From Candidatus Moraniibacteriota bacterium (GTDB taxonomy: Bacteria > Patescibacteriota > Minisyncoccia > Moranbacterales > UBA2206), in NCBI GenBank assembly GCA_026396175.1, contig JAPLXG010000013.1:65267-129266 (forward strand): a DNA stretch of 64,000 bases, given 5' to 3'. Positions 2,982-56,286 of the stretch are shown here, in pieces. How positions within the stretch are numbered: position 1 is the first letter of the stretch; every line of letters begins with the position of its first letter. Made by a program: the position numbers and the translations under genes. Below the pieces are notes generated by a model, which ran no database searches, was not told the DNA's origin, and saw only the letters and a list, made by a program, of their open reading frames with translations.

Positions 2982-3527
2982 TCAAACCTGCATAATCTCC
3001 GCTTCTTTTTTCTTTCTAATCTCTTCAATCATCGCGTTATATTCTTCCACCACTTTTTGCAATTTTTCCTTGCCCTGAAACTTATCATCGTCCCCAATCG
3101 CAAGTGCCTGAATTTCATCCGAAATATCTTCACGCAATTTCCGCACGGCGACGCGCGCACCTTCTGCTTCAAGATTTAGAATCTTCACAAATTCTTTGCG
3201 TCGCTCTTCGGTCAGTGCCGGGATATTGATTCGGATTAATATTCCATCATTCATCGGATTGAGTCCCAAATCAGATTCCTTGATCGCTTTTTCGATGAGC
3301 GCCAAAGTACTTTTGTCCCAAGGAGAAATCACAATCGTGCGCGGTTCCGGGACAGACACGCTCGCCACCTGCTTCAGTGGGGATTTCGCGCCGTAATAAT
3401 CCACCGTCAAGTCGTCCACGAGTGCAGTTGAAGCTCTCCCTGTCCGTACCTTCCCCAAATTATCCTTGAAGTGCGCAATAGTTTTTTCAAAATTAACTTT
3501 GCTTTTTTCAATTAGTTCTTTGTACAT
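2982..3527 (-). CDS. frr: ribosome recycling factor
   Basis: The ORF extends to 3578, but conserved RRF sequence starts at the internal Met (MYKELIEKSK...). Matches include KVRTGRASTALVD, VPEPRTIVISPWD and LTEERRKE. Confidence 0.9.
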   Translation of the reverse strand: MYKELIEKSKVNFEKTIAHFKDNLGKVRTGRASTALVDDLTVDYYGAKSPLKQVASVSVPEPRTIVISPWDKSTLALIEKAIKESDLGLNPMNDGILIRINIPALTEERRKEFVKILNLEAEGARVAVRKLREDISDEIQALAIGDDDKFQGKEKLQKVVEEYNAMIEEIRKKKEAEIMQV

Positions 3528-3544
3528 AGTTTTTAAAAAAATTA

Positions 3545-3770
3545 TCTTAGGACTTATGCGCTTGAATAGATTTGTCATCCTGAGCGGAGTCCGTACTCGG
3601 ACGCAGTCGAAGCCTGCCTGCCGGTAGGCAGGGATCTACCGACTATTATCGCTGGCTTAGTGATACATAGTAAGACCTAGGATTATCACAAGCAGATCCT
3701 TCGACTCCGCTACGCTTCGCTCAGGATGACATGGTTTGGTTATTTTTTTTGCAAATGCGTAAGTCCTAAA
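3545..3770. repeat. MITE-like long hairpin element, family A (copy 1)
   Basis: Terminal inverted repeats ttaggacttatgcg...tgtcatcctgagcg // cgctcaggatgaca...gcgtaagtcctaa. The interior contains the REP palindrome cctgcctgccggtaggcagg. Three more copies sit at 38633, 45219 and 62901. Confidence 0.6.
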
Positions 3771-3783
3771 AAATAAATTATTT

Positions 3784-4860
3784 TTATTTGGCACTAAACC
3801 CAGCATAAATGATGCTTGGATTCAGTGGATTATATTCCAAAATATTTATCGGCTTTGGGACATCAAATTGTGCCGGTGTCCAAGTCTTGCCTTCATCAAT
3901 CGATTTATAGGTTGCTTGCATAGCGCCATACATAATTTCTCGTGAATTTTGCGGATTAATCGCGAGCGCTCCCACTGGCGAGTTTTGCGGATTATTCAAA
4001 GTCAAAATAGATTCCCATTTATCTCCCGCGTCCTTACTGCGAATGATGCCCGTTTTTCCTCCCAGATAGACCCATTTGCCGTTAGTGGGATCTGTTTCCA
4101 AAACACCGAAACCTGATCCAGCTGAAACAGTCACCACAATCTTTGCGGTCAAGCTTTCAAATTTATCCCCGCCATTAGAACTGACAAAAGCTTCGCCATT
4201 TTGCGTCAGCAGATAGACTAAATTGCCGTCTCGCGCATCAACGGCAATTTTCACTACCGGAGATTGCGCCTGAAGCAGACTGCGCCAAGAAATTCCTCCA
4301 TCCGCACTTTTCAGTACTTGATTATCGCTCGTCGCCGCATAGAGTGTCTGTGGATTTTTCTTGTCCACTGTCATTTGCACCACCAATGGTCCATTCGTCG
4401 CCGCGGTATAGATTTCCGTCCAAGAGTCTGTCGCTCCAGCGGCGGAATTTTTGAATATTTTTCCTCGTCCGGCAATGACAGTGCTGGCATAAATTGTTTG
4501 TGAATTATTTGGATCAACCGCCAACCCATAGATCTTGTCTGATTTAAACGTCAAAAATTCCCAACCATCCCCGCCACTGGTCGTCTTCATAATTCCCCCA
4601 CTGCGTAATCCAACATAAGCAATGTTTTGATTATTCGGATCCATCGCCAAACTGAGCGGATTGATGTCCGTCACTGTCGGCTTATTGGTCGCCACACTGG
4701 AATCCTTCCAACTCTTTCCGCCGTCACGGGAAATCCAGATGCTTTTGGAAATAGGATACGTCTGAACTGCTCCTGGAGTGGAAGCCACGGGCGTCAAAGC
4801 ACACCCGGTTAAAGCCAGGGTAAACGTAGCACAAGCTAGGATAACGACACCTTTTTTCAT
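3784..4860 (-). CDS. lipoprotein with BNR/Ycf48-like beta-propeller repeats
   Basis: Probable start MKKGVVILACATFTLALTGC with a lipobox (LTGC). Repeated S-x-D-G-G-x-S/T-W motifs (SRDGGKSW, SADGGISW, SNGGDKFE, SIDEGKTW) are typical of BNR/sialidase-like propellers. Confidence 0.65.
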   Translation of the reverse strand: MKKGVVILACATFTLALTGCALTPVASTPGAVQTYPISKSIWISRDGGKSWKDSSVATNKPTVTDINPLSLAMDPNNQNIAYVGLRSGGIMKTTSGGDGWEFLTFKSDKIYGLAVDPNNSQTIYASTVIAGRGKIFKNSAAGATDSWTEIYTAATNGPLVVQMTVDKKNPQTLYAATSDNQVLKSADGGISWRSLLQAQSPVVKIAVDARDGNLVYLLTQNGEAFVSSNGGDKFESLTAKIVVTVSAGSGFGVLETDPTNGKWVYLGGKTGIIRSKDAGDKWESILTLNNPQNSPVGALAINPQNSREIMYGAMQATYKSIDEGKTWTPAQFDVPKPINILEYNPLNPSIIYAGFSAK

Positions 4861-4917
4861 TTTTCCATTATACAACACAAAACAAAAAAAATCCAATATT
4901 GGATTTTTTTGCTTTTA

Positions 4918-5095
4918 GTGCGCCCACCAGGATTTCCGCCAGTGGGCGGATGACCGTTTGCTTAAAAGTCCGCCGGCTGGCGGATCTACCAGCGAGTTTT
5001 TTATTTGTGCGCCCACCAGGATTTCCGCCAGTGGGCGGATGACCGTTTGCTTAAAAGTCCGCCGGCTGGCGGATCTACCAGCGAGTTTTTTATTT
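4918..5095. repeat. two tandem units of about 89 bp that are degenerate tRNA-Lys copies disrupted by palindromic inserts
   Basis: The units at 4918-5006 and 5007-5095 share tgcgcccaccagga... and ...ccgtttgcttaaaag... with the authentic tRNA-Lys next door. The T-arm and anticodon-arm segments are replaced by the palindromes tccgccagtgggcgga and tccgccggctggcgga. Confidence 0.6.
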
Positions 5096-5096
5096 G

Positions 5097-5170
5097 TGCG
5101 CCCACCAGGATTCGAACCTGGGACCGTTTGCTTAAAAGGCAACTGCTCTACCAGACTGAGCTATAGGCGC
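5097..5170 (-). tRNA. tRNA-Lys (anticodon TTT)
   Basis: The minus-strand sequence gcgcctatagctcagtctggtagagcagttgccttttaagcaaacggtcccaggttcgaatcctggtgggcgca folds as a cloverleaf (7-bp acceptor, D-arm agctcagtctggtagagc, anticodon loop cttttaa, T-arm ccaggttcgaatcctgg). It is close to canonical bacterial tRNA-Lys. There is no encoded CCA. Confidence 0.8.
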
Positions 5171-5183
5171 ATGGTTTAAATTT

Positions 5184-5232
5184 AAGACCGTTTACTTAAT
5201 AGTCCGCCAGCCGGCGAATCTACCAGACTGAA
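5184..5232. repeat. tRNA-Lys-derived fragment with palindromic insert (left direct repeat flanking the GIY-YIG gene)
   Basis: ccgtttacttaatagtccgccagccggcgaatctaccagactgaactaacg is about 85% identical to the right-hand copy at 5519-5580. Confidence 0.5.
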
Positions 5233-5511
5233 CTAACGACATAAATTATTATTTTCTATTAAATTTTTTACAAACATTCTTCCTTGACAGCTTTTTAATT
5301 CCTTTTCTCTTTTCATTGCTTCACCCCTACTTCCAAAACTTTCCTCGTAAATCAACTTCCAGCATCCACTATTCTTACTCGTAAACGATGTCTTCTTATT
5401 TTTTAATACTCCATTATGTCTCAACAACCTATTTTCTAAATCAGCAGTCTGTCCAATATAGATCGCGTCTTTTTCTTTATTGTAAATTACGTAAGCTTTA
5501 AACATACTCAC
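5233..5511 (-). CDS. GIY-YIG nuclease domain protein (small, Slx1/YhbQ-like)
   Basis: 92 aa. The N-terminus AYVIYNKEKDAIYIGQTADLENRLLRH carries the GIY...YIG...R motif, followed by the conserved E (EAMKREKELK). Confidence 0.8.
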   Translation of the reverse strand: MSMFKAYVIYNKEKDAIYIGQTADLENRLLRHNGVLKNKKTSFTSKNSGCWKLIYEESFGSRGEAMKREKELKSCQGRMFVKNLIENNNLCR

Positions 5512-5518
5512 TTCCTAG

Positions 5519-5580
5519 GACCTTTTGCTTAATAGTCCGCCGGCTGGCGGATCTACCAGACTGAGCTATAGGCGCATAAT
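5519..5580. repeat. tRNA-Lys-derived fragment with palindromic insert (right direct repeat flanking the GIY-YIG gene)
   Basis: ccttttgcttaatagtccgccggctggcggatctaccagactgagctataggcgca ends with an exact copy of the 5' end of tRNA-Lys. Confidence 0.5.
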
Positions 5581-5729
5581 TCGATTTTATGACAACTTTG
5601 CCAGTATAAACACTAAAAAACTTTCCGTCAAGGAGTTTTTCGCTTCAGTTATTCGCTGCGCGAACCCCCGCTACGAATGGGGGACATGCGAATTGTTATT
5701 TTTTGAAAAATTATATGCTAAAATCTGCC

Positions 5730-6251
5730 TTATCTGAGAATTCTTTTGTGGATCAGAAACATAAACACCAGCGGAGCCAGCATCCAAAAAAAAGCGAAAT
5801 TGGGCGAAACTAGATAATCATAGGAGCTGGGAGAAACATAGCCTAGGGCGATTTTTTTCGGCATAATAGTTAGCGCCACACTGAGCAGTAGCATCACTTC
5901 CAGAAAACTCATCACAAACACTCGCCAGAGAAAACCTTTGCCGGAACCAGAAAGTTGAATCTCAAACATTTTCTTTCCCAGCACGGTGAGTAAAATTATT
6001 ATGCCAAAAAATAGCATCAAGCTATAGGTATAGTCAGGGAGAATCCCCTTGGGAAAAACGCCCAGGAGCGCGACAGAAACATAGATATTGATAAGCACCG
6101 TGATTAACTTGAAGCGGCCAATCGACATCCCGAACACAAAACTAATGAGCGCGATGGCTAGAAATAGCATCACGTCCTGAGATGTTTTTGAGGAAAGTCC
6201 CAATTGAGAAAAAATCAAACTAAGATTCATTTTGGTTTTATCCCCCACCAC
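5730..6251 (-). CDS. hypothetical polytopic membrane protein
   Basis: 173 aa with four or five hydrophobic helices and no recognisable motif. Confidence 0.45.
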   Translation of the reverse strand: MVGDKTKMNLSLIFSQLGLSSKTSQDVMLFLAIALISFVFGMSIGRFKLITVLINIYVSVALLGVFPKGILPDYTYSLMLFFGIIILLTVLGKKMFEIQLSGSGKGFLWRVFVMSFLEVMLLLSVALTIMPKKIALGYVSPSSYDYLVSPNFAFFWMLAPLVFMFLIHKRILR

Positions 6252-6513
6252 TTTTTTGCTCGCACTTATTAAGTGAACAGGGAATGTTTTGTTAGTTTTT
6301 TTATTAGTTTATCAAAATAATTCTGCAGATAAATAAAACTCCCAAAGCAAAAAAGTGGTAAGGGATGAATTATTTTTATACTCTTATCTTACTCTCTTTT
6401 TATTTTTTTGTCACGAAGAAAAATTACATCAAGAGGCAGGCAAACTCGAACCTGCAAAAGCTTCAAAATTGAGCCCTTCCTGTTCACTGATTCCTGTTCA
6501 TTGTTCACTGTTT

Positions 6514-7629
6514 TTACTCCCCCAACTGGCCCAACTCCTCAAGCAATCTTTTTTGCTCACGGTTTAGACGTTTCGGAATCCGCACAATCACTTTCACGAT
6601 CTGATTGCCACGCGATCCCGAATGCAGATTGGGTACACCCTTGCCTTTGACGCGAAACTGCTCGCCCGACTGCGTCCCGGAAGGAATTTTCAAAGTTAAG
6701 CGACCATCAATCGTTTCAATGATCGTCTCGCCACCCAGCGCCGCGACCGAAAAAGGAATTTCCACTGAACTCAAAATATCCTGTCCATTTCTTTTAAATT
6801 CCTTATGCGCCCGGACATGGACATTAATATATAAATCACCAGGAACTCCACCAACTCCGCCCGCTTCTCCCGCGCCTTGCATCGAAAGCGTCTGCCCATC
6901 AGCAATTCCCGCCGGAATCTCAATGTCTAATTTATTCTCTGCCATCACCCGACCATCCCCTCTGCACTTAGAGCATTTCTTTGAGATAATTTTGCCAACA
7001 CCGTGACAATCCGGACACTCTGCCACTTGCGAAAAACTGCCGAAAAAACTACGACTGATTTTTTGCACGCGCCCCGCTCCACCGCAAGTCGCACAAGTCT
7101 TGAGTTCACTGCCTTTTTCACCGCCAGCACCATCACAACGATCACAAATTGTGCTTTTGCGTAAATTGATTTGTCGCTTTGCGCCACTGACCATTTCAGC
7201 AAAATCTATTTCCACATCCACTTGAATATCTTTTCCGCGCTTGCGGCGAGTTGTACTGCCGCCGCGACCACCACTAAAAATTGAAGAAAAAATATCTTCA
7301 AAGTCTCCTCCATCAAAACCGAAGCCCTGACTCGAAAAGTCCCAGCCCGAGGCGGGTCCGCCTTGGGAGGAAAAGCCACCAAAACCTTGTCCACCGCCCG
7401 CACCTGACCTCCCCGCTTGATCAAATGTCTGACCATATTGGTCATATTGCGAACGTTTAGATTTGTCGGAAAGCACCTGATAGGCCTCGTTAATTTCCTT
7501 GAACTTCGCCTCGTCACCACCAGTCTTATCTGGATGATGCTTGTGCGCCAACTTGCGATAAGCTTTTTTGATCTCATCGTCGCTGGCGCCTTTGGAAACG
7601 CCTAAAATATTATAGTAATCGTTAGACAT
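6514..7629 (-). CDS. dnaJ: chaperone DnaJ
   Basis: J-domain YYNILGV...HPDK. G/F-rich region. Four CxxCxGxG zinc-finger repeats ([32 protein letters not shown]). C-terminal domains present. Confidence 0.95.
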
Positions 7630-7687
7630 AAAAATAGTTTAAATTAGAGAAAAATCACACTCCAAATATTAGCATGAATTAAAAAAA

Positions 7688-7714
7688 TTAGCAATCCCCT
7701 GCGGTGAGTGCTAA
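7688..7714. promoter_or_regulatory. CIRCE-like HrcA operator upstream of dnaJ
   Basis: TTAGCAATC-N9-GAGTGCTAA differs at one position from the consensus TTAGCACTC-N9-GAGTGCTAA. It lies 70-100 nt upstream of the dnaJ start. Confidence 0.7.
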
Positions 7715-7734
7715 TTTGCCTTTTTAGGCCCCCT

Positions 7735-8736
7735 CTATTCAATCACTTCCATTTCCACCGGGACCTTTTTTATCGTCACGATGTTCGTGGAAAGAAAAAT
7801 CCAAAAGATAAGACTGATCAAATGCACCAAAATTCGAAGCAAAAATGCCCCCAGTGAAAGTACGGTTAAAAACAAGATCAGTGCCATCCCAAGAGGAACA
7901 GCCGGGAAACCTTCATTGGCATAATCCGGCGAAGCAAAGCTTTGAATTTTTTGATTCATAATTTCCGTGAGAACAGTGGATACTTTTTCCGTTCCATTCA
8001 GTTTCTGATTAGCCATTTTCCCCATCTGTTCCCTGCCCGCTTCTAGGATTTTTTGTTTTTGCAGCTCTTGCACTTTTTGCAGATTAACCGCAGAAATCGC
8101 CTGATTATCTTGAGCTAAATTAAGCAAATCTGCTTCCCCACTACCAACTTGGCTTTCCTCGTAATTTTGCAAAATCATCTGATCAACCGTCAAATTTTTA
8201 TCATTCAATTTTTGTAAATCGGGATTAATTTTATAGAGAAATTCTTGCGCCAATTTATTATCCACAATCACGCCCGCATCAAAAGCCGGCAGCTTTAAAA
8301 GCCCCACCGCTGCCGCTTCGAAATAGTATTGGCTAGAAATAACGAGCGCCAGTGCGAAGATGAAAGAAACCTTTCCCATCCGCAAAGTTTTTGGCAGATG
8401 CAATTTCACGTTCATTCCCAGGTCACTTCTGATTTGCCGGAAAGAAACATAAACCAGCCCCGAAGCTAAAAGCAAAATCAAAAAATGCCAAACGTTGGGC
8501 GCAAAAATTAGACTCAAAAAAATTCCCAGCCCGATAGAAAGATTGATCAGTATTTTTTCTTTGACCAGAATAAATTTCAAAGAATAGACAACATACAAAA
8601 GGGAAAGCCACAGCATCGGCACGAGCCAAACGCTCGACCCAGAAACAGTAATCGCAGAACTCACTGAAAACCAAGTAAAGAAGGCCGCGATAAGTGAAAG
8701 AAAAAAGAGCGAAAACTTAAGAATATTTTTTTGCAT
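7735..8736 (-). CDS. hypothetical membrane protein
   Basis: 333 aa. N- and C-terminal clusters of TM helices flank a central soluble, Q/N/E-rich segment. No recognisable motif. Confidence 0.45.
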   Translation of the reverse strand: MQKNILKFSLFFLSLIAAFFTWFSVSSAITVSGSSVWLVPMLWLSLLYVVYSLKFILVKEKILINLSIGLGIFLSLIFAPNVWHFLILLLASGLVYVSFRQIRSDLGMNVKLHLPKTLRMGKVSFIFALALVISSQYYFEAAAVGLLKLPAFDAGVIVDNKLAQEFLYKINPDLQKLNDKNLTVDQMILQNYEESQVGSGEADLLNLAQDNQAISAVNLQKVQELQKQKILEAGREQMGKMANQKLNGTEKVSTVLTEIMNQKIQSFASPDYANEGFPAVPLGMALILFLTVLSLGAFLLRILVHLISLIFWIFLSTNIVTIKKVPVEMEVIE

Positions 8737-15442: not shown

Positions 15443-15600
15443 TGTCATTCCCGCGAAGGCGGGAATCCAGGTTCCGCTAGCCATAGACTCTGAAAAATCG
15501 AATTATAAATCCCCCAACTTTTATTTTCTAACAAGCAAATCTCGCTTTTCTTTTTTTATAGCCTGAGGCGCCTGGATCCCCGCCTCCGCGGGGATGACAC
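15443..15600. repeat. MITE-like element, family B (gtcattcccgcgaaggcgggaatccag TIRs)
   Basis: Left end gtcattcccgcgaaggcgggaatccag, right end ctggatccccgcctccgcggggatgac. The same termini flank an 87-bp in-frame insert in elp3 (52504-52590). Confidence 0.55.
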
Positions 15601-15763
15601 GATGCAAAAAAACGAGCGCGTGGCCCGTTTTTATAAAGTTAGCTGTTCAGGATTTGAAGGTTCAATTCAGGAGAATTGAACCGACATCGACTTCTATGGG
15701 AAATTCTTGTTTCTTGCTCGCCTGCCGAATCCGCCAGCTGGCGGAGTAGGTAGGTTTCTTGTT

Positions 15764-30908: not shown

Positions 30909-30915
30909 CTTGTGG

Positions 30916-30987
30916 TAGCCCCAAGGAGAGTCGGACTCCTCTTTCCAGGATGAGAACCTGACGTCCTAACCGATAGACGATGGGGCC
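30916..30987 (-). tRNA. tRNA-Glu (anticodon CTC) with non-canonical T-loop
   Basis: The minus-strand sequence ggccccatcgtctatcggttaggacgtcaggttctcatcctggaaagaggagtccgactctccttggggcta folds as a cloverleaf (7-bp acceptor, D-loop with GG, anticodon loop ttctcat, T-stem aggag/ctcct). The T-loop reads tccgact instead of TTCRANY. Confidence 0.5.
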
Positions 30988-31179
30988 ATAAATTGGTACT
31001 AAGGTGAGAACTCACTATTTTTTAATAATAGCTAGGCCCTGTCCGCATCGCTACGCGAAGCGTTGCGGGCGGGCAAAATATCCAAAACGTAGCTTATCAG
31101 CAAATGAAAAAATTATCAAGCATTGATTACCCAGACGAGTCCGCCGGCTGGCGGACTCGTCTCTACCATTTTTACCACG

Positions 31180-35693: not shown

Positions 35694-36118
35694 AACATCA
35701 TGAAACATGAAGCATGAAACATGAAACAAAAAAGCTTACGCCTAATTTGTCTTATGCTTCATGCCTGCCTGCCAGTAGGCAGGTTATATGCTATATGTTA
35801 TATGTGTTTTTATTCTACTACACTTTAAAAAATTGGACAACGCCGTTTTTGCTGATATAATTAAAATACGCTTACGCGCAATGAATTTTCTCCGCCAGCT
35901 GGCGGATTAAATTTGAAATCAAGATCAAGTGACTAAATGCTTAAATGATAATTTAAAAATAAACTTCCTCACAGCAAACTAATAAGGCATTAGGGAATCT
36001 ACTTTACCCATTATGTAGCAACCTGCTGGGAATCAAACCCCTGAGTAATTAAAAATTTAATAATTTAGATTTGATTTTAAATTTATAATTTTAAATTTCA
36101 AATTTTTATTGCACTCCT

Positions 36119-54928: not shown

Positions 54929-55225
54929 CTAACTTTTGCTTAAAGATTTTTTCATTCTTCTTTTTAGCTGTCCTAACGCTTGCCCATATTGTTTTAGCTG
55001 TTTTTCTCTTTCCCAAGCATCCTCCTCTGCAAAATACGCCTCATAATAAACAAGGCGCCATTTATGTCCTTTTGTAAATTTAGAATCATTGTTATTGTGC
55101 TGAAAAAATCTTTTTTTCAAATCATCAGTACAGCCATAATACAATTCTTCATCTTCATTTTTTAGAACATACACATATTGCATACTCGTAAAAGCAAAAG
55201 TTAGTGCGGGACAAGCTGCCCGCAA
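54929..55225 (-). CDS. GIY-YIG nuclease domain protein (second copy)
   Basis: YVYVLKNEDEELYYGCTDDLKKR gives the GIY/YIG/R motifs, with EREKQLK downstream. It overlaps the rlmN start by 25 nt. Confidence 0.75.
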   Translation of the reverse strand: MRAACPALTFAFTSMQYVYVLKNEDEELYYGCTDDLKKRFFQHNNNDSKFTKGHKWRLVYYEAYFAEEDAWEREKQLKQYGQALGQLKRRMKKSLSKS

Positions 55226-56286
55226 GCGCCTTGGACCTCTTGCCCAAGACTTTTCCGAATCGTCACACTCATCCCGCCTTTTTTCAAATAGTTTTTGAAT
55301 AAATGCGTTTTATTGCCAGAAGACGACTTAAATTCTTTGCCGGTTTCATTGTAGGCGATTAAGTTAATATGCAAAAGTTGGCGATTGCCGATGGATTTTA
55401 GATAGGTCGAAAGCGCATAGGCGTCTTCTTCGCTATCGTTTATGCCTGCGAGCATCACGTATTCCACGAAAACTTGCCGATTGGTTTTGGAAAAATAATC
55501 CTTGAGCGCTTTTTTTAATTCTTCTAGATTATATTTTTTGTTGATCGGCATATATTCATTTCTTTTGACGTCACTCGCGAAATGCAGAGAAATAGCCAAG
55601 TTGATTTGCGGAAATTCCTGGGCGAGAGACTTTATCCCTTCGGGAATTCCAGCGGTCGAAACAGAAATTGAGCGCGAACCAAAAGCAAATAAATTCTTGT
55701 CGGTCAAATCTTTGAGACTTTTTTTCACTTCCTCCCAATTCAAAAACGGCTCCCCCATACCCATATAGACAATGTTATTCACATTGTAATTTTTAATTTT
55801 TAATTTTTCCGCCCAAGGCGGACCAGCCTGGGGCTGGTAATTTTTAAACAAATTAGAATTTTTTTGCAGGTGCTGTTTCCAAAATAAAACCTGATCGCTG
55901 ATTTCTTCAGCCGTTAAATTCCGTTGAAATCCGTTTTTTCCCGTTGCGCAAAAAGCACAATTCAAAGGGCAGCCGACTTGCGAAGAGATACAAACCGACC
56001 ACTTCCCCGCAATCGGAGAAAGTAACACAGATTCAATTTTATTCCCATCGGCCAATTTCAAAAGAGCTTTCAAGGAATTTTTATCCTTCGATACTAAAAC
56101 TTTTTCCACATCAAAGGAAAGGATTTTTATTTCTTTTTCCAAGTGTTCGCGCAAGTTTTTAGAAATAGTTGAAATTTCTGAAAAATCAGAAACGCCATCT
56201 TGATAGATGGCTTTTTGAATTTGGCTCAAGCGAAATTTCGGTTCGCCACTTTCAGTGAGAATTTTTTTTAGTTTTTCGATTTGCAT
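55201..56286 (-). CDS. rlmN: 23S rRNA (adenine2503-C2)-methyltransferase / tRNA m2A37 methyltransferase RlmN
   Basis: Radical-SAM motif SQVGCPLNCAFCATG. The C-terminal catalytic Cys region and full-length similarity in layout match RlmN. Confidence 0.9.
   Translation of the reverse strand: MQIEKLKKILTESGEPKFRLSQIQKAIYQDGVSDFSEISTISKNLREHLEKEIKILSFDVEKVLVSKDKNSLKALLKLADGNKIESVLLSPIAGKWSVCISSQVGCPLNCAFCATGKNGFQRNLTAEEISDQVLFWKQHLQKNSNLFKNYQPQAGPPWAEKLKIKNYNVNNIVYMGMGEPFLNWEEVKKSLKDLTDKNLFAFGSRSISVSTAGIPEGIKSLAQEFPQINLAISLHFASDVKRNEYMPINKKYNLEELKKALKDYFSKTNRQVFVEYVMLAGINDSEEDAYALSTYLKSIGNRQLLHINLIAYNETGKEFKSSSGNKTHLFKNYLKKGGMSVTIRKSLGQEVQGACGQLVPH

Follow-up and report, generated by a model that had tools for sequence, protein, structure and literature searches.

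A minimal GIY-YIG nuclease gene, a 16-nt hairpin and disabled tRNA copies as a candidate selfish cassette in a tRNA-Lys transcription unit of a Candidatus Moraniibacteriota bacterium

Our analysis of a tRNA-Lys locus in a Candidatus Moraniibacteriota bacterium points, with somewhat better than even confidence, to a homing-type nuclease cassette, selfish in nature, that occupies the tRNA-Lys transcription unit. The cassette consists of a minimal GIY-YIG ORF without a promoter of its own, a partial copy of the resident tRNA flanking the ORF on its outer side and a 16-nt hairpin standing in for a fixed stretch of this copy. The package of nuclease, hairpin and disabled tRNA copy is apparently undescribed; no account of the arrangement was found in the searchable literature, whose coverage here is incomplete.

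The locus lies on the minus strand of the window, that is, the whole 64,000-nucleotide stretch of DNA analysed, to which all positions refer (Table 1). Read on this strand, a promoter is followed by a hairpin-bearing partial tRNA-Lys copy, the GIY-YIG ORF, a second partial copy with a hairpin, the intact tRNA-Lys(UUU), two 89-bp units and a likely terminator. The original prediction had located the tRNA-Lys, the two 89-bp units, the palindromes, the GIY-YIG gene and the flanking repeats, all of which we found where it had put them or a few bases away; it described the 89-bp units as upstream of the tRNA, and in the orientation of the tRNA both of them lie downstream (3').

Table 1. Features of the tRNA-Lys/GIY-YIG locus (coordinates in the window)
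Feature	Position	Strand	Details
Sigma-70-type promoter	5603..5631	-	TTGACG, 17 nt, TATACT; 10/12 matches
Partial tRNA-Lys copy 1 (ORF leader)	5518..5575	-	shuffle z=20.4
GIY-YIG nuclease ORF	5233..5505	-	90 aa, ATG at 5505; alternatively 92 aa, GTG at 5511
Partial tRNA-Lys copy 2	5186..5240	-	tRNA positions ~5-49; shuffle z=11.1
Intact tRNA-Lys, anticodon UUU	5096..5170	-	ARAGORN 5096-5170; Rfam tRNA 5097-5170, 70.2 bits, E=5.7e-15
Trailing unit 1, ORF-less	5007..5095	-	shuffle z=19.5
Trailing unit 2, tandem duplicate of unit 1	4918..5006	-	hairpins 4969-4984, 4935-4950; z=19.9
A/T-rich hairpin with T run	4879..4916	-	by reading the sequence

Judged from its motifs, the promoter would drive the entire tRNA-Lys/ORF unit. 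Its sequence, TTGACGGAAAGTTTTTT..TATACT, is common to loci L001, L081, L083 and L084, and the lone tRNA-Lys of relatives with an empty site is preceded by the same promoter. The first partial copy comprises tRNA positions 1-24, a hairpin (5536-5551), a mutated anticodon loop (CTATTAA), the 3' strand of the anticodon stem and the variable region, and the ribosome-binding site of the ORF comes after it. Homologues begin at the position equivalent to the ATG. The stop codon, TAG (5233-5235), is the U8-A9-G10 triplet of the second partial copy, which overlaps the end of the ORF, carries a hairpin (5203-5218) with a U.G pair in sense orientation, and is followed by a 15-nt spacer; a second partial copy is likewise present in L001. 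Trailing unit 1 is built from the spacer AAATAAAAAACTCG, tRNA positions ~16-24, a hairpin (5058-5073), positions 33-50, another hairpin (5024-5039) and positions 59-76, and the two 89-bp units are identical except for the first bases of the register. Units of this type are also found 3' of the tRNA in L084, L002 and L086, the last of these being ORF-less. The A/T-rich hairpin and T run downstream are the likely terminator of the unit, and an equivalent hairpin stands directly 3' of the tRNA in two relatives with empty sites (L082 and L083). This hairpin is absent from the terminator-scan list because the scan demands at least three G-C stem pairs, and the call is therefore based on reading the sequence.

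The additional units derive from tRNA-Lys, as had been proposed. Local alignment of the four degenerate copies to tRNA-Lys gave z = 11-20 against 2000 shuffles, and therefore they differ from random sequence, the resemblance that had been named beforehand as counting against a tRNA origin. The repeats flanking the ORF are also real, and the right-hand one includes a stretch that matches the tRNA 5' end exactly over 26 nt. None of the four copies is called as a tRNA, since ARAGORN gives only 5096-5170 and Rfam tRNA only 5097-5170 at E up to 10; the Rfam scan of the locus (4600-5900, E up to 10) returned tRNA only, with no intron, riboswitch or sRNA family. The degenerate copies have lost one side of the D and anticodon stems, and the trailing units one side of the T stem as well. 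In the trailing units, the first hairpin occupies ~positions 24-31/32, in place of the 3' half of the D stem, position 26 and the 5' half of the anticodon stem; the second, at ~positions 50-58, takes over from the 5' half of the T stem and some of the T loop. The palindromes had been thought to replace the anticodon region as well as the T loop, but the anticodon loop CTTTTAA is retained.

The palindromes TCCGCCAGTGGGCGGA and TCCGCCGGCTGGCGGA are found at 4935, 4969, 5024 and 5058, as well as at 5536 and, with one mismatch, at 5203; the window holds nine matches against 0.12 expected by chance, and three solitary copies lie elsewhere in it. The spacers of this genome also hold palindromes of several families. 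Across loci the hairpin is GC-rich and 16 nt long, with the consensus TCCGCC-N4-GGCGGA, and sits at 23|32 (replacing positions 24-31) in nearly all tRNA-Lys cases and at 13|17 in tRNA-Asn and tRNA-His (>100 copies). When the insert was defined by its flanks alone, 82 of 91 had a perfect 6-bp stem, and stem variants preserve pairing by changes on both arms (CCCGCC..GGCGGG, TTCGCC..GGCGAA, TCCGTC..GACGGA, TCCGGC..GCCGGA, TCAGGCT..AGCCTGA). Hairpin copies number 122 near ORFs and 3 elsewhere in 441 kb, and the ORF-less loci (123 kb) contain one off-consensus copy. Given this confinement and the fixed tRNA position, the partial copies, the hairpin and the ORF behave as one package, and the earlier view of the palindromes as independent dispersed elements does not hold.

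Since the hairpin replaces a fixed tRNA segment, the copy that bears it is unable to form a tRNA and the native sequence is gone there. The hairpin flanks track the local tRNA in each lineage (mismatches 1.3 vs 4.4 on the left, 2.3 vs 4.0 on the right), the hairpin sequence is near-fixed across phyla with covarying stems, and tRNA copies that are already dead gain second and third hairpins at other stems. A terminator made of the hairpin and the U-run of the Lys anticodon loop was rejected, because the CUCUUAA and CUAUUAA variants and the Asn D-loop site have no U-run. Growth of the hairpin from the native octamer GCAGYTGC (24-31) was also rejected, because the octamer varies widely by lineage whereas the hairpin does not, and because the same hairpin occurs in the D loop of the Asn and His cassettes.

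The GIY-YIG gene predicted at 5233-5511 (minus strand) is real, its product matching Pfam PF01541 with E=6.7e-15 and 55.6 bits (cutoff 22.6). Among 30 homologues Y5, Y16, G18 and E67 are invariant and R26 is nearly so, and the predicted model has a beta-beta-alpha-beta-alpha-alpha core (pLDDT 88.5), so that the catalytic domain and the Tyr, Tyr-x-Gly, Arg and Glu residues of the superfamily are all in place. The protein is a single catalytic domain in a family of 84-100 aa, and no C-terminal DNA-binding module (NUMOD, zinc finger or HTH) was found in its 90 aa. A match to TIGR01453 covers residues 5-43 only, with 24 bits against a cutoff of 56. UPF0213 proteins and Slx1 outrank the I-TevI catalytic domain in both sequence and fold searches, with profile matches to PDB 1zg2 and 1ywl at E=4.9e-8 and 1.7e-7, and Foldseek placing 1zg2 at the top, followed by Slx1 chains. 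The product also has the length (~80-110 aa), the domain-only build and the similarity to 1zg2 and 1ywl that characterize UPF0213 and stand-alone Slx1-like proteins, and these comparisons assign it to the minimal Slx1/UPF0213 branch, not to the I-TevI/Seg branch. A conserved loop, HNGxLKNKxTSFTSKN, is specific to the subfamily; a classical-type paralogue in the window (54929-55225) is without that loop and without the tRNA and hairpin context.

Purifying selection on the ORF is strong (dN/dS 0.04-0.18). Such selection over a long time is also compatible with a host-beneficial gene. The exact protein, from either start codon, is absent from sequence records. Viral contigs gave only three weak partial matches to the nuclease family, and therefore no vector is evident and a phage origin is unsupported. 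Of the PADLOC defence models, only a generic 'homing endonuclease' model and one for a candidate system gave matches, weak ones to the nuclease domain.

The cassette recurs on the chromosomes of CPR bacteria and of some Bacteroidota and Ignavibacteriota. A tRNA adjoins the ORF in 70 of 80 loci with ORF homologues (47-83% identity), always on the ORF strand (77/77 adjacent tRNAs), and the partner is tRNA-Lys, -Asn, -His, -Met or -Val. The hairpin lies 20-90 nt upstream of the start codon in 59 of the 80 loci and at no more than 700 nt in 70, and those loci scored as hairpin-less that were inspected proved to have variant hairpins; a hairpin-disrupted copy of the local tRNA is present in nearly all 80. 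Two mirror architectures exist, one with a partial 5' copy and hairpin, the ORF and the tRNA, and the other with the tRNA, the ORF and a hairpin with a partial 3' copy. When the ORF is upstream of the tRNA, its stop codon is inside the tRNA in 37 of 59 loci, and in 26 of those it is exactly U8-A9-G10. Tandem amplification of units or of whole cassettes is common, the distance between hairpin and ORF varies from 28 to 75 nt, and the hairpin of the Asn type has only a very short piece of tRNA copy on its ORF side. The nuclease tree is grouped by tRNA target, with a Lys clade, an Asn/His clade and a Bacteroidota/Ignavibacteriota clade.

Orthologous loci were sampled in an unbiased way through the neighbouring membrane-protein gene, and the metagenome scan was run with a 4-sequence alignment. 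Among the 31 orthologous loci, 27 have neither the ORF nor a consensus hairpin, three are filled and one has only an ORF-less trailing unit; in about 20 of the empty ones a lone tRNA-Lys directly follows the membrane-protein gene. An empty locus (L083) and a filled one (L084), both obtained from metagenome Ga0172379, have 96% amino acid identity in the neighbouring gene and identical promoter, leader and tRNA, and filled and empty loci are interleaved in the neighbouring-gene tree, with at least six sister contrasts. The ORF shows the presence/absence polymorphism, at a conserved target and with precise boundaries, that is looked for in a homing gene. These results bear out the original prediction in that the GIY-YIG gene is an insertion relative to close relatives and the tRNA gene its landing site, but its ancestral tandem tRNA-Lys array finds no support, because ~20 of the 31 orthologous loci have one lone intact tRNA-Lys and an intact tandem array is found in no relative. 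That idea was to be abandoned if relatives had the arrangement with no intact array and the nuclease gene at a different locus; the intact array is indeed absent, but the ORF occupies the same locus, and therefore only half of that outcome was obtained. The nucleases have for the most part diverged in step with the neighbouring genes, the closest cassettes differing by dS >1, and synonymous similarity of the ORF relative to its flank, sought as a sign of recent transfer, offered few sites and a dS near saturation. An insert of ~90 nt after tRNA position 7 (L081, L086, L001) was discarded as a degraded-ORF remnant, its similarity to the 3' end of the ORF not being significant.

From sequence we infer the activity and target of the nuclease, its cleavage site, the horizontal gain of the cassette and the role of the hairpin as follows. 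The ORF would be transcribed from the tRNA promoter, and the nuclease would break tRNA genes in relatives that have no cassette, within or close to the segment taken over by the hairpin, so that repair from the cassette-bearing allele would copy the package into the broken site. Short direct repeats (at least 23 nt) would permit precise loss, restoring the empty site, and repeated breakage and repair would generate tandem ORF-less units and hold the partial copies close in sequence to the local tRNA. One intact tRNA always adjoins the ORF, and therefore the host would suffer no loss. The level of expression is probably low, because most relatives have the stop codon inside the tRNA, where RNase P processing would sever it from the mRNA. 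As for the hairpin, the nuclease most likely binds or recognizes it specifically, as an immunity or autoregulatory site or as a structure-specific substrate. Destruction of the target needs no particular sequence and therefore, alone, leaves a hairpin near-fixed across phyla unexplained. Some observations speak against homing. The patchy distribution could also be obtained by vertical descent with repeated precise loss, and the protein has no DNA-binding domain and falls in the Slx1/UPF0213 branch, for which we know of no demonstration of sequence-specific homing. In addition, the intact tRNA beside the ORF retains the presumed target, so self-cleavage calls for further explanation.

Among the closest known systems are the homing endonucleases SegB of phage T4 and F-Tfl of T5, whose free-standing genes lie within clusters of tRNA genes. 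SegB, a GIY-YIG homing endonuclease, cleaves tRNA genes and shares transcripts with tRNAs, its target is a conserved tRNA-gene motif with cleavable sites remaining in its own genome, and its stop codon is parted from the ORF by tRNA 5' processing (PMC2330249). It drives segmental amplification around tRNA genes (PMC13096335) and carries a C-terminal DNA-binding motif (NUMOD3), in a layout suggested to resemble two-domain I-TevI (PMC2330249). Like SegB, the cassette places a GIY-YIG gene among tRNA genes, with the stop codon within the tRNA in many cases. However, SegB is larger and phage-borne, whereas the cassette protein is a chromosomal, catalytic-domain-only product of 84-100 aa, nearly absent from viral contigs, and SegB has neither the conserved hairpin nor the disabled partial tRNA copies of the cassette. 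UPF0213/YhbQ and stand-alone Slx1-like proteins have been described as the minimal GIY-YIG form (PMC1564403). UPF0213/YhbQ proteins (PDB 1zg2, 1ywl) are the best sequence and fold matches, of equal size and with a single domain, but the cassette subfamily differs from UPF0213 in general by its own HNGxLKNKxTSFTSKN loop and its strict tRNA and hairpin context.

Integrase-type islands and prophages in tRNA genes have an intact and a partial tRNA copy as direct repeats, and their loss can be precise (PMC9897764). Unlike these islands, the cassette has no integrase, its cargo is a single 270-bp ORF, the part duplicated is usually the 5' part of the tRNA and the copy is disabled by the hairpin; a search for a tyrosine or serine recombinase between the repeats found only the 90-aa ORF. 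A group I intron with a homing gene in a split tRNA was rejected, as no intron family was found at 4600-5900 (E up to 10) and the tRNA beside the ORF is uninterrupted. Edgell et al. (2004) reportedly described autorepression of I-TevI through an operator that resembles the homing site and is bound without being cut. By analogy, this operator may be a model for the hairpin in the ORF leader, although the operator is ordinary duplex DNA whereas the hairpin replaces part of a gene copy. REP/RAYT and IS200/IS605 systems use an HUH tyrosine transposase and have hairpins spread over the whole genome. The cassette is like REP/RAYT and the IS200/IS605 ends in tying a short conserved GC-rich hairpin to the single small nuclease-type gene it flanks, but a REP/RAYT-like system was rejected, with 122 hairpins in cassettes against 3 elsewhere in 441 kb and a gene that is GIY-YIG, not HUH.

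It is rather unlikely that the locus is a domesticated operon of benefit to the host, in which the GIY-YIG protein serves the co-transcribed tRNA through processing, repair of a highly transcribed locus or defence, the hairpin-bearing partial tRNA is a cis-regulatory leader or trailer and the empty sites are simple losses. The low dN/dS (0.04-0.18), together with dS >1 between neighbouring lineages, would mean long retention under selection, and the rough tracking of the flanking gene by nuclease divergence, the invariable placement of ORF and tRNA on the same strand, often overlapping, and the cellular, structure-specific nucleases of the Slx1/UPF0213 lineage are in line with this reading. 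However, the absence of the ORF in 27 of 31 orthologous loci, one of which has a neighbouring gene 96% identical to that of a filled locus, counts against it, and changing tRNA partners, mirrored architecture and tandem cassette amplification are habits of selfish DNA. The PADLOC defence models are also unfitting beyond their weak nuclease-domain matches. The history first proposed, a decayed tRNA-Lys array hit independently by palindromic mini-elements and, separately, by a homing-endonuclease insertion, appears highly improbable to us. The extra units are tRNA-derived, the spacers of the genome hold several palindrome families, this palindrome has three solitary copies in the window and the cassettes are formally derivable from a tRNA-ORF-tRNA ancestor; yet no relative has an intact tandem array, empty sites are single tRNAs, the palindrome is almost exclusive to the cassette and takes one fixed position per tRNA type in >100 copies, and hairpin, partial copy and ORF co-occur across phyla.

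The hairpin-bearing partial tRNA may, although this seems improbable, be no debris at all but the working partner of the 90-aa nuclease in a minimal homology-directed GIY-YIG system. An arrangement of this kind, to which we give equally little credence, would have the domain-only nuclease bind the hairpin as a handle, while the tRNA-matching flanks, as RNA or ssDNA, pair with the target and position the enzyme at the unpaired segment 24-31; in a variant, the enzyme would actively write the hairpin into any surplus tRNA copy. Such a partner would suit a nuclease without any DNA-binding domain, a hairpin that replaces target bases instead of being plainly inserted, flanks that both follow the local tRNA by lineage, a near-fixed hairpin sequence with covarying stems and dead copies that acquire second and third hairpins at other stems. 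However, duplication and gene conversion equally predict matching flanks, the distance between hairpin and ORF is variable (28 to 75 nt) and the ORF-side copy in the Asn type is very short. To our knowledge, no GIY-YIG enzyme uses a guide, and the homology-directed logic we are aware of belongs to TnpB/IscB-type enzymes, not to the GIY-YIG fold.

The package of nuclease, hairpin and disabled tRNA copy recurs in at least several hundred CPR species representatives and in some Bacteroidota and Ignavibacteriota, and it accounts for one class of the tRNA gene fragments in CPR annotations. It also explains odd extensions of CPR ORFs, for example N- or C-terminal 'DPPAGGL'-type tails, which are translated hairpins. 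Stand-alone Slx1/UPF0213-type GIY-YIG proteins gain a genomic context and candidate substrates, the tRNA gene and the hairpin, and so small a nuclease (90 aa), paired with a defined hairpin of 16 nt, might be of practical use as a tool. If the cassette does home, it shows how an essential single-copy tRNA locus can harbour a selfish gene without cost, and the cassette would mark recombination in the reduced genomes of uncultivated bacteria.

The table below lists the window locus in minus-strand order, starting at 5631 and ending at 4879. In each of the 89-bp units, a short spacer and a D-loop piece come first, palindromes lie on either side of the anticodon-loop region, and the intact tRNA 3' end closes the unit. 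The window has nine occurrences of the palindrome pattern, where 0.12 would be expected, and each degenerate copy aligns with the tRNA at z = 11-20 against shuffles, which confirms the original prediction of tRNA-derived, palindrome-bearing units. These 89-bp units had been placed upstream of the tRNA, but they lie 3' of it. The palindromes do replace tRNA segments, namely one strand of the D and anticodon stems and of the T stem, but the anticodon, also thought to have been replaced, is not.

Features of the tRNA-Lys locus in the window
Feature	Position	Strand	Description
Promoter	5631-5603	-	sigma-70-type, TTGACG-17-TATACT, good match (promoter scan)
Partial tRNA-Lys copy 1	5575-5518	-	tRNA positions 1-24, palindrome TCCGCCAGCCGGCGGA, anticodon-loop region, anticodon-stem 3' strand
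GIY-YIG ORF	5505-5233	-	Pfam E=6.7e-15
Partial tRNA copy 2	5240-5186	-	same kind of palindrome; source of the ORF stop codon
tRNA-Lys(UUU)	5170-5096	-	intact
Two identical 89-bp units	5095-5007 and 5006-4918	-	
Probable terminator	4916-4879	-	A/T-rich hairpin and T run, by reading of the sequence; absent from the terminator-scan list

The pseudo anticodon loop at 5527-5533 reads CTATTAA and not CTTTTAA, as in L084, L002, L045 and L046 (L numbers denote homologous or orthologous loci from other genomes and metagenomes), and with this T-to-A change the predicted fold of the leader has a longer hairpin, in which GGTAG can pair with CTATT. Read on the plus (antisense) strand, the 89-bp units each contain GCTGG..CCAGC, a hairpin resembling a terminator, with TTTTTTA after it (4976-4993 and 5065-5082); no plus-strand gene was found upstream of these hairpins within 3000-8000.

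The arrangement is a recurring package and no local accident. By annotation, the closest relatives of the ORF come from Candidatus Moranbacteria and further Patescibacteria, and the hairpin sequence, in translated form, is already present at the ends of some database homologues. At least 543 loci with a gene for a relative came out of a scan that took one genome for each species. Of the best 80, 70 have a tRNA immediately next to the ORF, and adjacent tRNAs always match the ORF strand (77/77). The ORF is upstream of the tRNA in 59 of the 80 (38 Lys, 18 Asn, 2 His and 1 called Leu) and the mirror order, tRNA first, is found in 11. A GC-rich hairpin precedes the start codon by 20-90 nt in 59 and is present within 700 nt in 70. 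Those apparently hairpin-less loci that were inspected have variant hairpins (TCCGCC-GT-GGCGGA, TCCGGC-N3/4-GCCGGA or TCAGGCT-C-AGCCTGA), and in every case read the hairpin lies within a partial duplicate of the local tRNA. The package recurs, TCCGCCAGCTGGCGGA included, beside tRNA-Val, tRNA-Met and tRNA-Asn in Bacteroidota (Sunxiuqinia, on a 2.9-Mb contig, and Arcticibacter) and in Ignavibacteriota. Among L026, L045 and L065, and L033, L037, L017 and L021, whole cassettes form tandem doublets with two ORFs, and some loci have partial tRNA units with hairpins in tandem, three to six of them, all to one side of the intact tRNA.

To locate the hairpin within the tRNA, the 10 nt flanking each copy on both sides were mapped to the adjacent tRNA. 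Almost all tRNA-Lys cassettes, with UUU and CUU anticodons alike, have it at 23|32; Asn and His cassettes have it in the D loop at 13|17, and the Val cassette has it at 24|35. When the insert was defined by its tRNA flanks only, 82 of 91 inserts had perfect 6-bp stems with 4-nt loops, the commonest being TCCGCC-[AGCT, AGCC, AACT or GGCT]-GGCGGA. Changes on both arms preserve pairing in several lineages (C1-G16, T2-A15, T5-A12, G5-C12), with two U.G pairs on the sense strand, and the sequence is nearly fixed; therefore, both the structure and the sequence of the hairpin are maintained. It is not a general genomic repeat: 122 copies lie within -700 to +1000 of ORF starts versus 3 elsewhere in 441 kb, and related loci without the ORF have one off-consensus hairpin in 123 kb. 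The 16-nt left flank shows 1.3 mismatches to the tRNA of its own locus versus 4.4 to those of other loci, and the right flank 2.3 versus 4.0. For the flanks to follow the local tRNA lineage by lineage, as they do, the insertions must be young, gene conversion must be continuing without touching the hairpin, or a match must be selected for.

Further hairpins are found at other stems of dead copies (the T-arm hairpin of the window; others in L004, L017, L021 and L076). A solitary cassette palindrome at 31140-31155, ~150 nt 5' of tRNA-Glu(CUC) (30913-30987, minus strand), has flanking bases that lengthen its stem to 12 bp (GACGAG..CTCGTC), and its flank contains the tRNA D-loop motif AATGGTAGAG; a cassette may once have stood there. 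Two more solitary, intergenic copies of TCCGCCAGCTGGCGGA lie at 15730-15745, in the loop of another GC-rich palindrome (GCCTGCC..GGTAGG) and ~50 nt from T-arm-like GGTTCAATTC sequences, and at 35891-35906. Other families of GC-rich palindromes occupy AT-rich spacers at ~35765-35790, 31040-31075, 15575-15595 and 5652-5690. One example, CCTGCCTGCC..GGCAGG, also follows the tRNA in L009 and L010. L081 has conserved the palindrome that precedes the promoter at 5652-5690, and a related hairpin occupies the same place in L083.

The protein has 90 aa and a single domain, modelled (pLDDT 88.5) as a GIY-YIG core with a conserved basic loop, HNGxLKNKxTSFTSKN, at lower confidence. Profile and fold searches rank BH0048 and EF2693, both UPF0213 proteins, and the nuclease domain of Slx1 nearest, with the I-TevI catalytic domain lower. 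The protein is therefore a member of the minimal Slx1-like branch of Dunin-Horkawicz et al. (PMC1564403) and not a two-domain Seg/I-TevI homing enzyme. The family is almost absent from the viral contigs searched. In the nuclease tree, cassettes cluster by tRNA partner. A second GIY-YIG ORF in the window, of the classical UPF0213 type (54929-55225, minus strand; 98 aa from TTG, 84 aa from ATG), is 37% identical to the tRNA-nested one and directly follows an rlmN-like radical-SAM gene (55201-56286), with no tRNA or palindrome nearby. Classical genes adjoin the tRNA-nested cassette at two unrelated loci (L004 2669-2944; L064 3516-3770), which suggests that the two subfamilies tend to cluster.

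A selfish, homing-type cassette is the most likely and best-supported reading of these sequences, and we consider it somewhat more probable than all others together. The promoter-less ORF borrows the tRNA promoter and one intact tRNA is always kept. The surplus partial copy is disabled by a hairpin that stands in for the native sequence at the presumed target and is probably recognised by the predicted nuclease. The stop codon lies inside the tRNA in 37 of the 59 loci with the ORF upstream (among the best 80 of at least 543), exactly at U8-A9-G10 in 26 of them, and, given the known action of RNase P, its cut would yield a stop-less mRNA. The closest documented system is SegB of phage T4. This GIY-YIG enzyme cleaves a conserved motif in tRNA genes and is co-transcribed with tRNAs; cleavable tRNA genes remain in its own genome, with low expression thought to be the restraint, and tRNA 5' processing has been proposed to sever the stop codon from the ORF (PMC2330249). 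SegB also drives segmental amplification around tRNA genes (PMC13096335), and the tandem units and tandem whole cassettes fit break-induced amplification. The stop-codon geometry is the same and is widespread among cassettes, but the differences are substantial: unlike SegB, the cassette has a minimal Slx1-like enzyme, cellular hosts, a reconstituted tRNA with a partial duplicate, and a conserved hairpin.

In Moranbacteria the locus is in conserved synteny, with a gene for a 173-aa membrane protein upstream and a BNR-repeat protein gene downstream. Sampling of metagenomes with the membrane protein as anchor, disregarding the nuclease, gave 31 orthologous loci. Neither ORF nor consensus hairpin is present in 27, ~20 of which have a lone tRNA-Lys(UUU) straight after the membrane gene, with the same promoter; three are filled (L084, L092, L100) and one, L086, has just an ORF-less trailing unit like those of the window. 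The empty L083 and the filled L084 come from one metagenome, with membrane proteins 95.8% identical (nucleotide 90.8%) and identical promoter, leader and tRNA; they differ by a block with a 23-nt direct repeat at its boundaries (hairpin, CTATTAAGCAAA, ribosome-binding site, ORF, spacer and tRNA 1-23). In the membrane-protein tree, filled loci are interspersed with empty ones, with at least six sister contrasts, and the cassette turns over across short evolutionary distances. The ancestral tandem tRNA-Lys array of the original prediction, decayed by palindromes and a GIY-YIG insertion, is therefore ruled out at this locus; the hairpin being cassette-specific also speaks against that model, which we regard as very improbable. 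L081, L086 and L001 have a ~90-nt insert between promoter and tRNA-Lys, after a duplicated tRNA 5' heptamer (GCGCCTA|CCCCG...); its 3' end resembles that of the ORF weakly and not significantly, and the insert may be what is left of a cassette or belong to another type of insertion.

Losses alone could produce the filled and empty pattern, because recombination between direct repeats would restore the empty site exactly. Nuclease divergence roughly parallels that of neighbouring genes, with one mild incongruence (the window ORF is nearer that of L084, its membrane gene nearer that of L001), and even the nearest cassettes are at dS ~1 or more. The ORF is under strong purifying selection (dN/dS = 0.04-0.18), which fits either continuing homing or host benefit. 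A domesticated gene with a host role would agree with this selection and the near-vertical divergence, but the many empty sites, changing tRNA partners, mirror architectures and amplification make it rather unlikely. A handle-and-guide or hairpin-writing system would account for the replacement geometry, the flanks matching the local tRNA and the missing DNA-binding domain, and we judge it improbable.

In a full-text literature search of incomplete coverage, no account was found of tRNA genes that host a small GIY-YIG gene together with tRNA copies disabled by hairpins; an earlier description may exist elsewhere. A study of rRNA insertions in CPR bacteria mentions GIY-YIG proteins in rRNA insertions only (PMC11270868). 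Free-standing homing-type nuclease genes at tRNA loci are a known kind, of which we rate the cassette a novel form.
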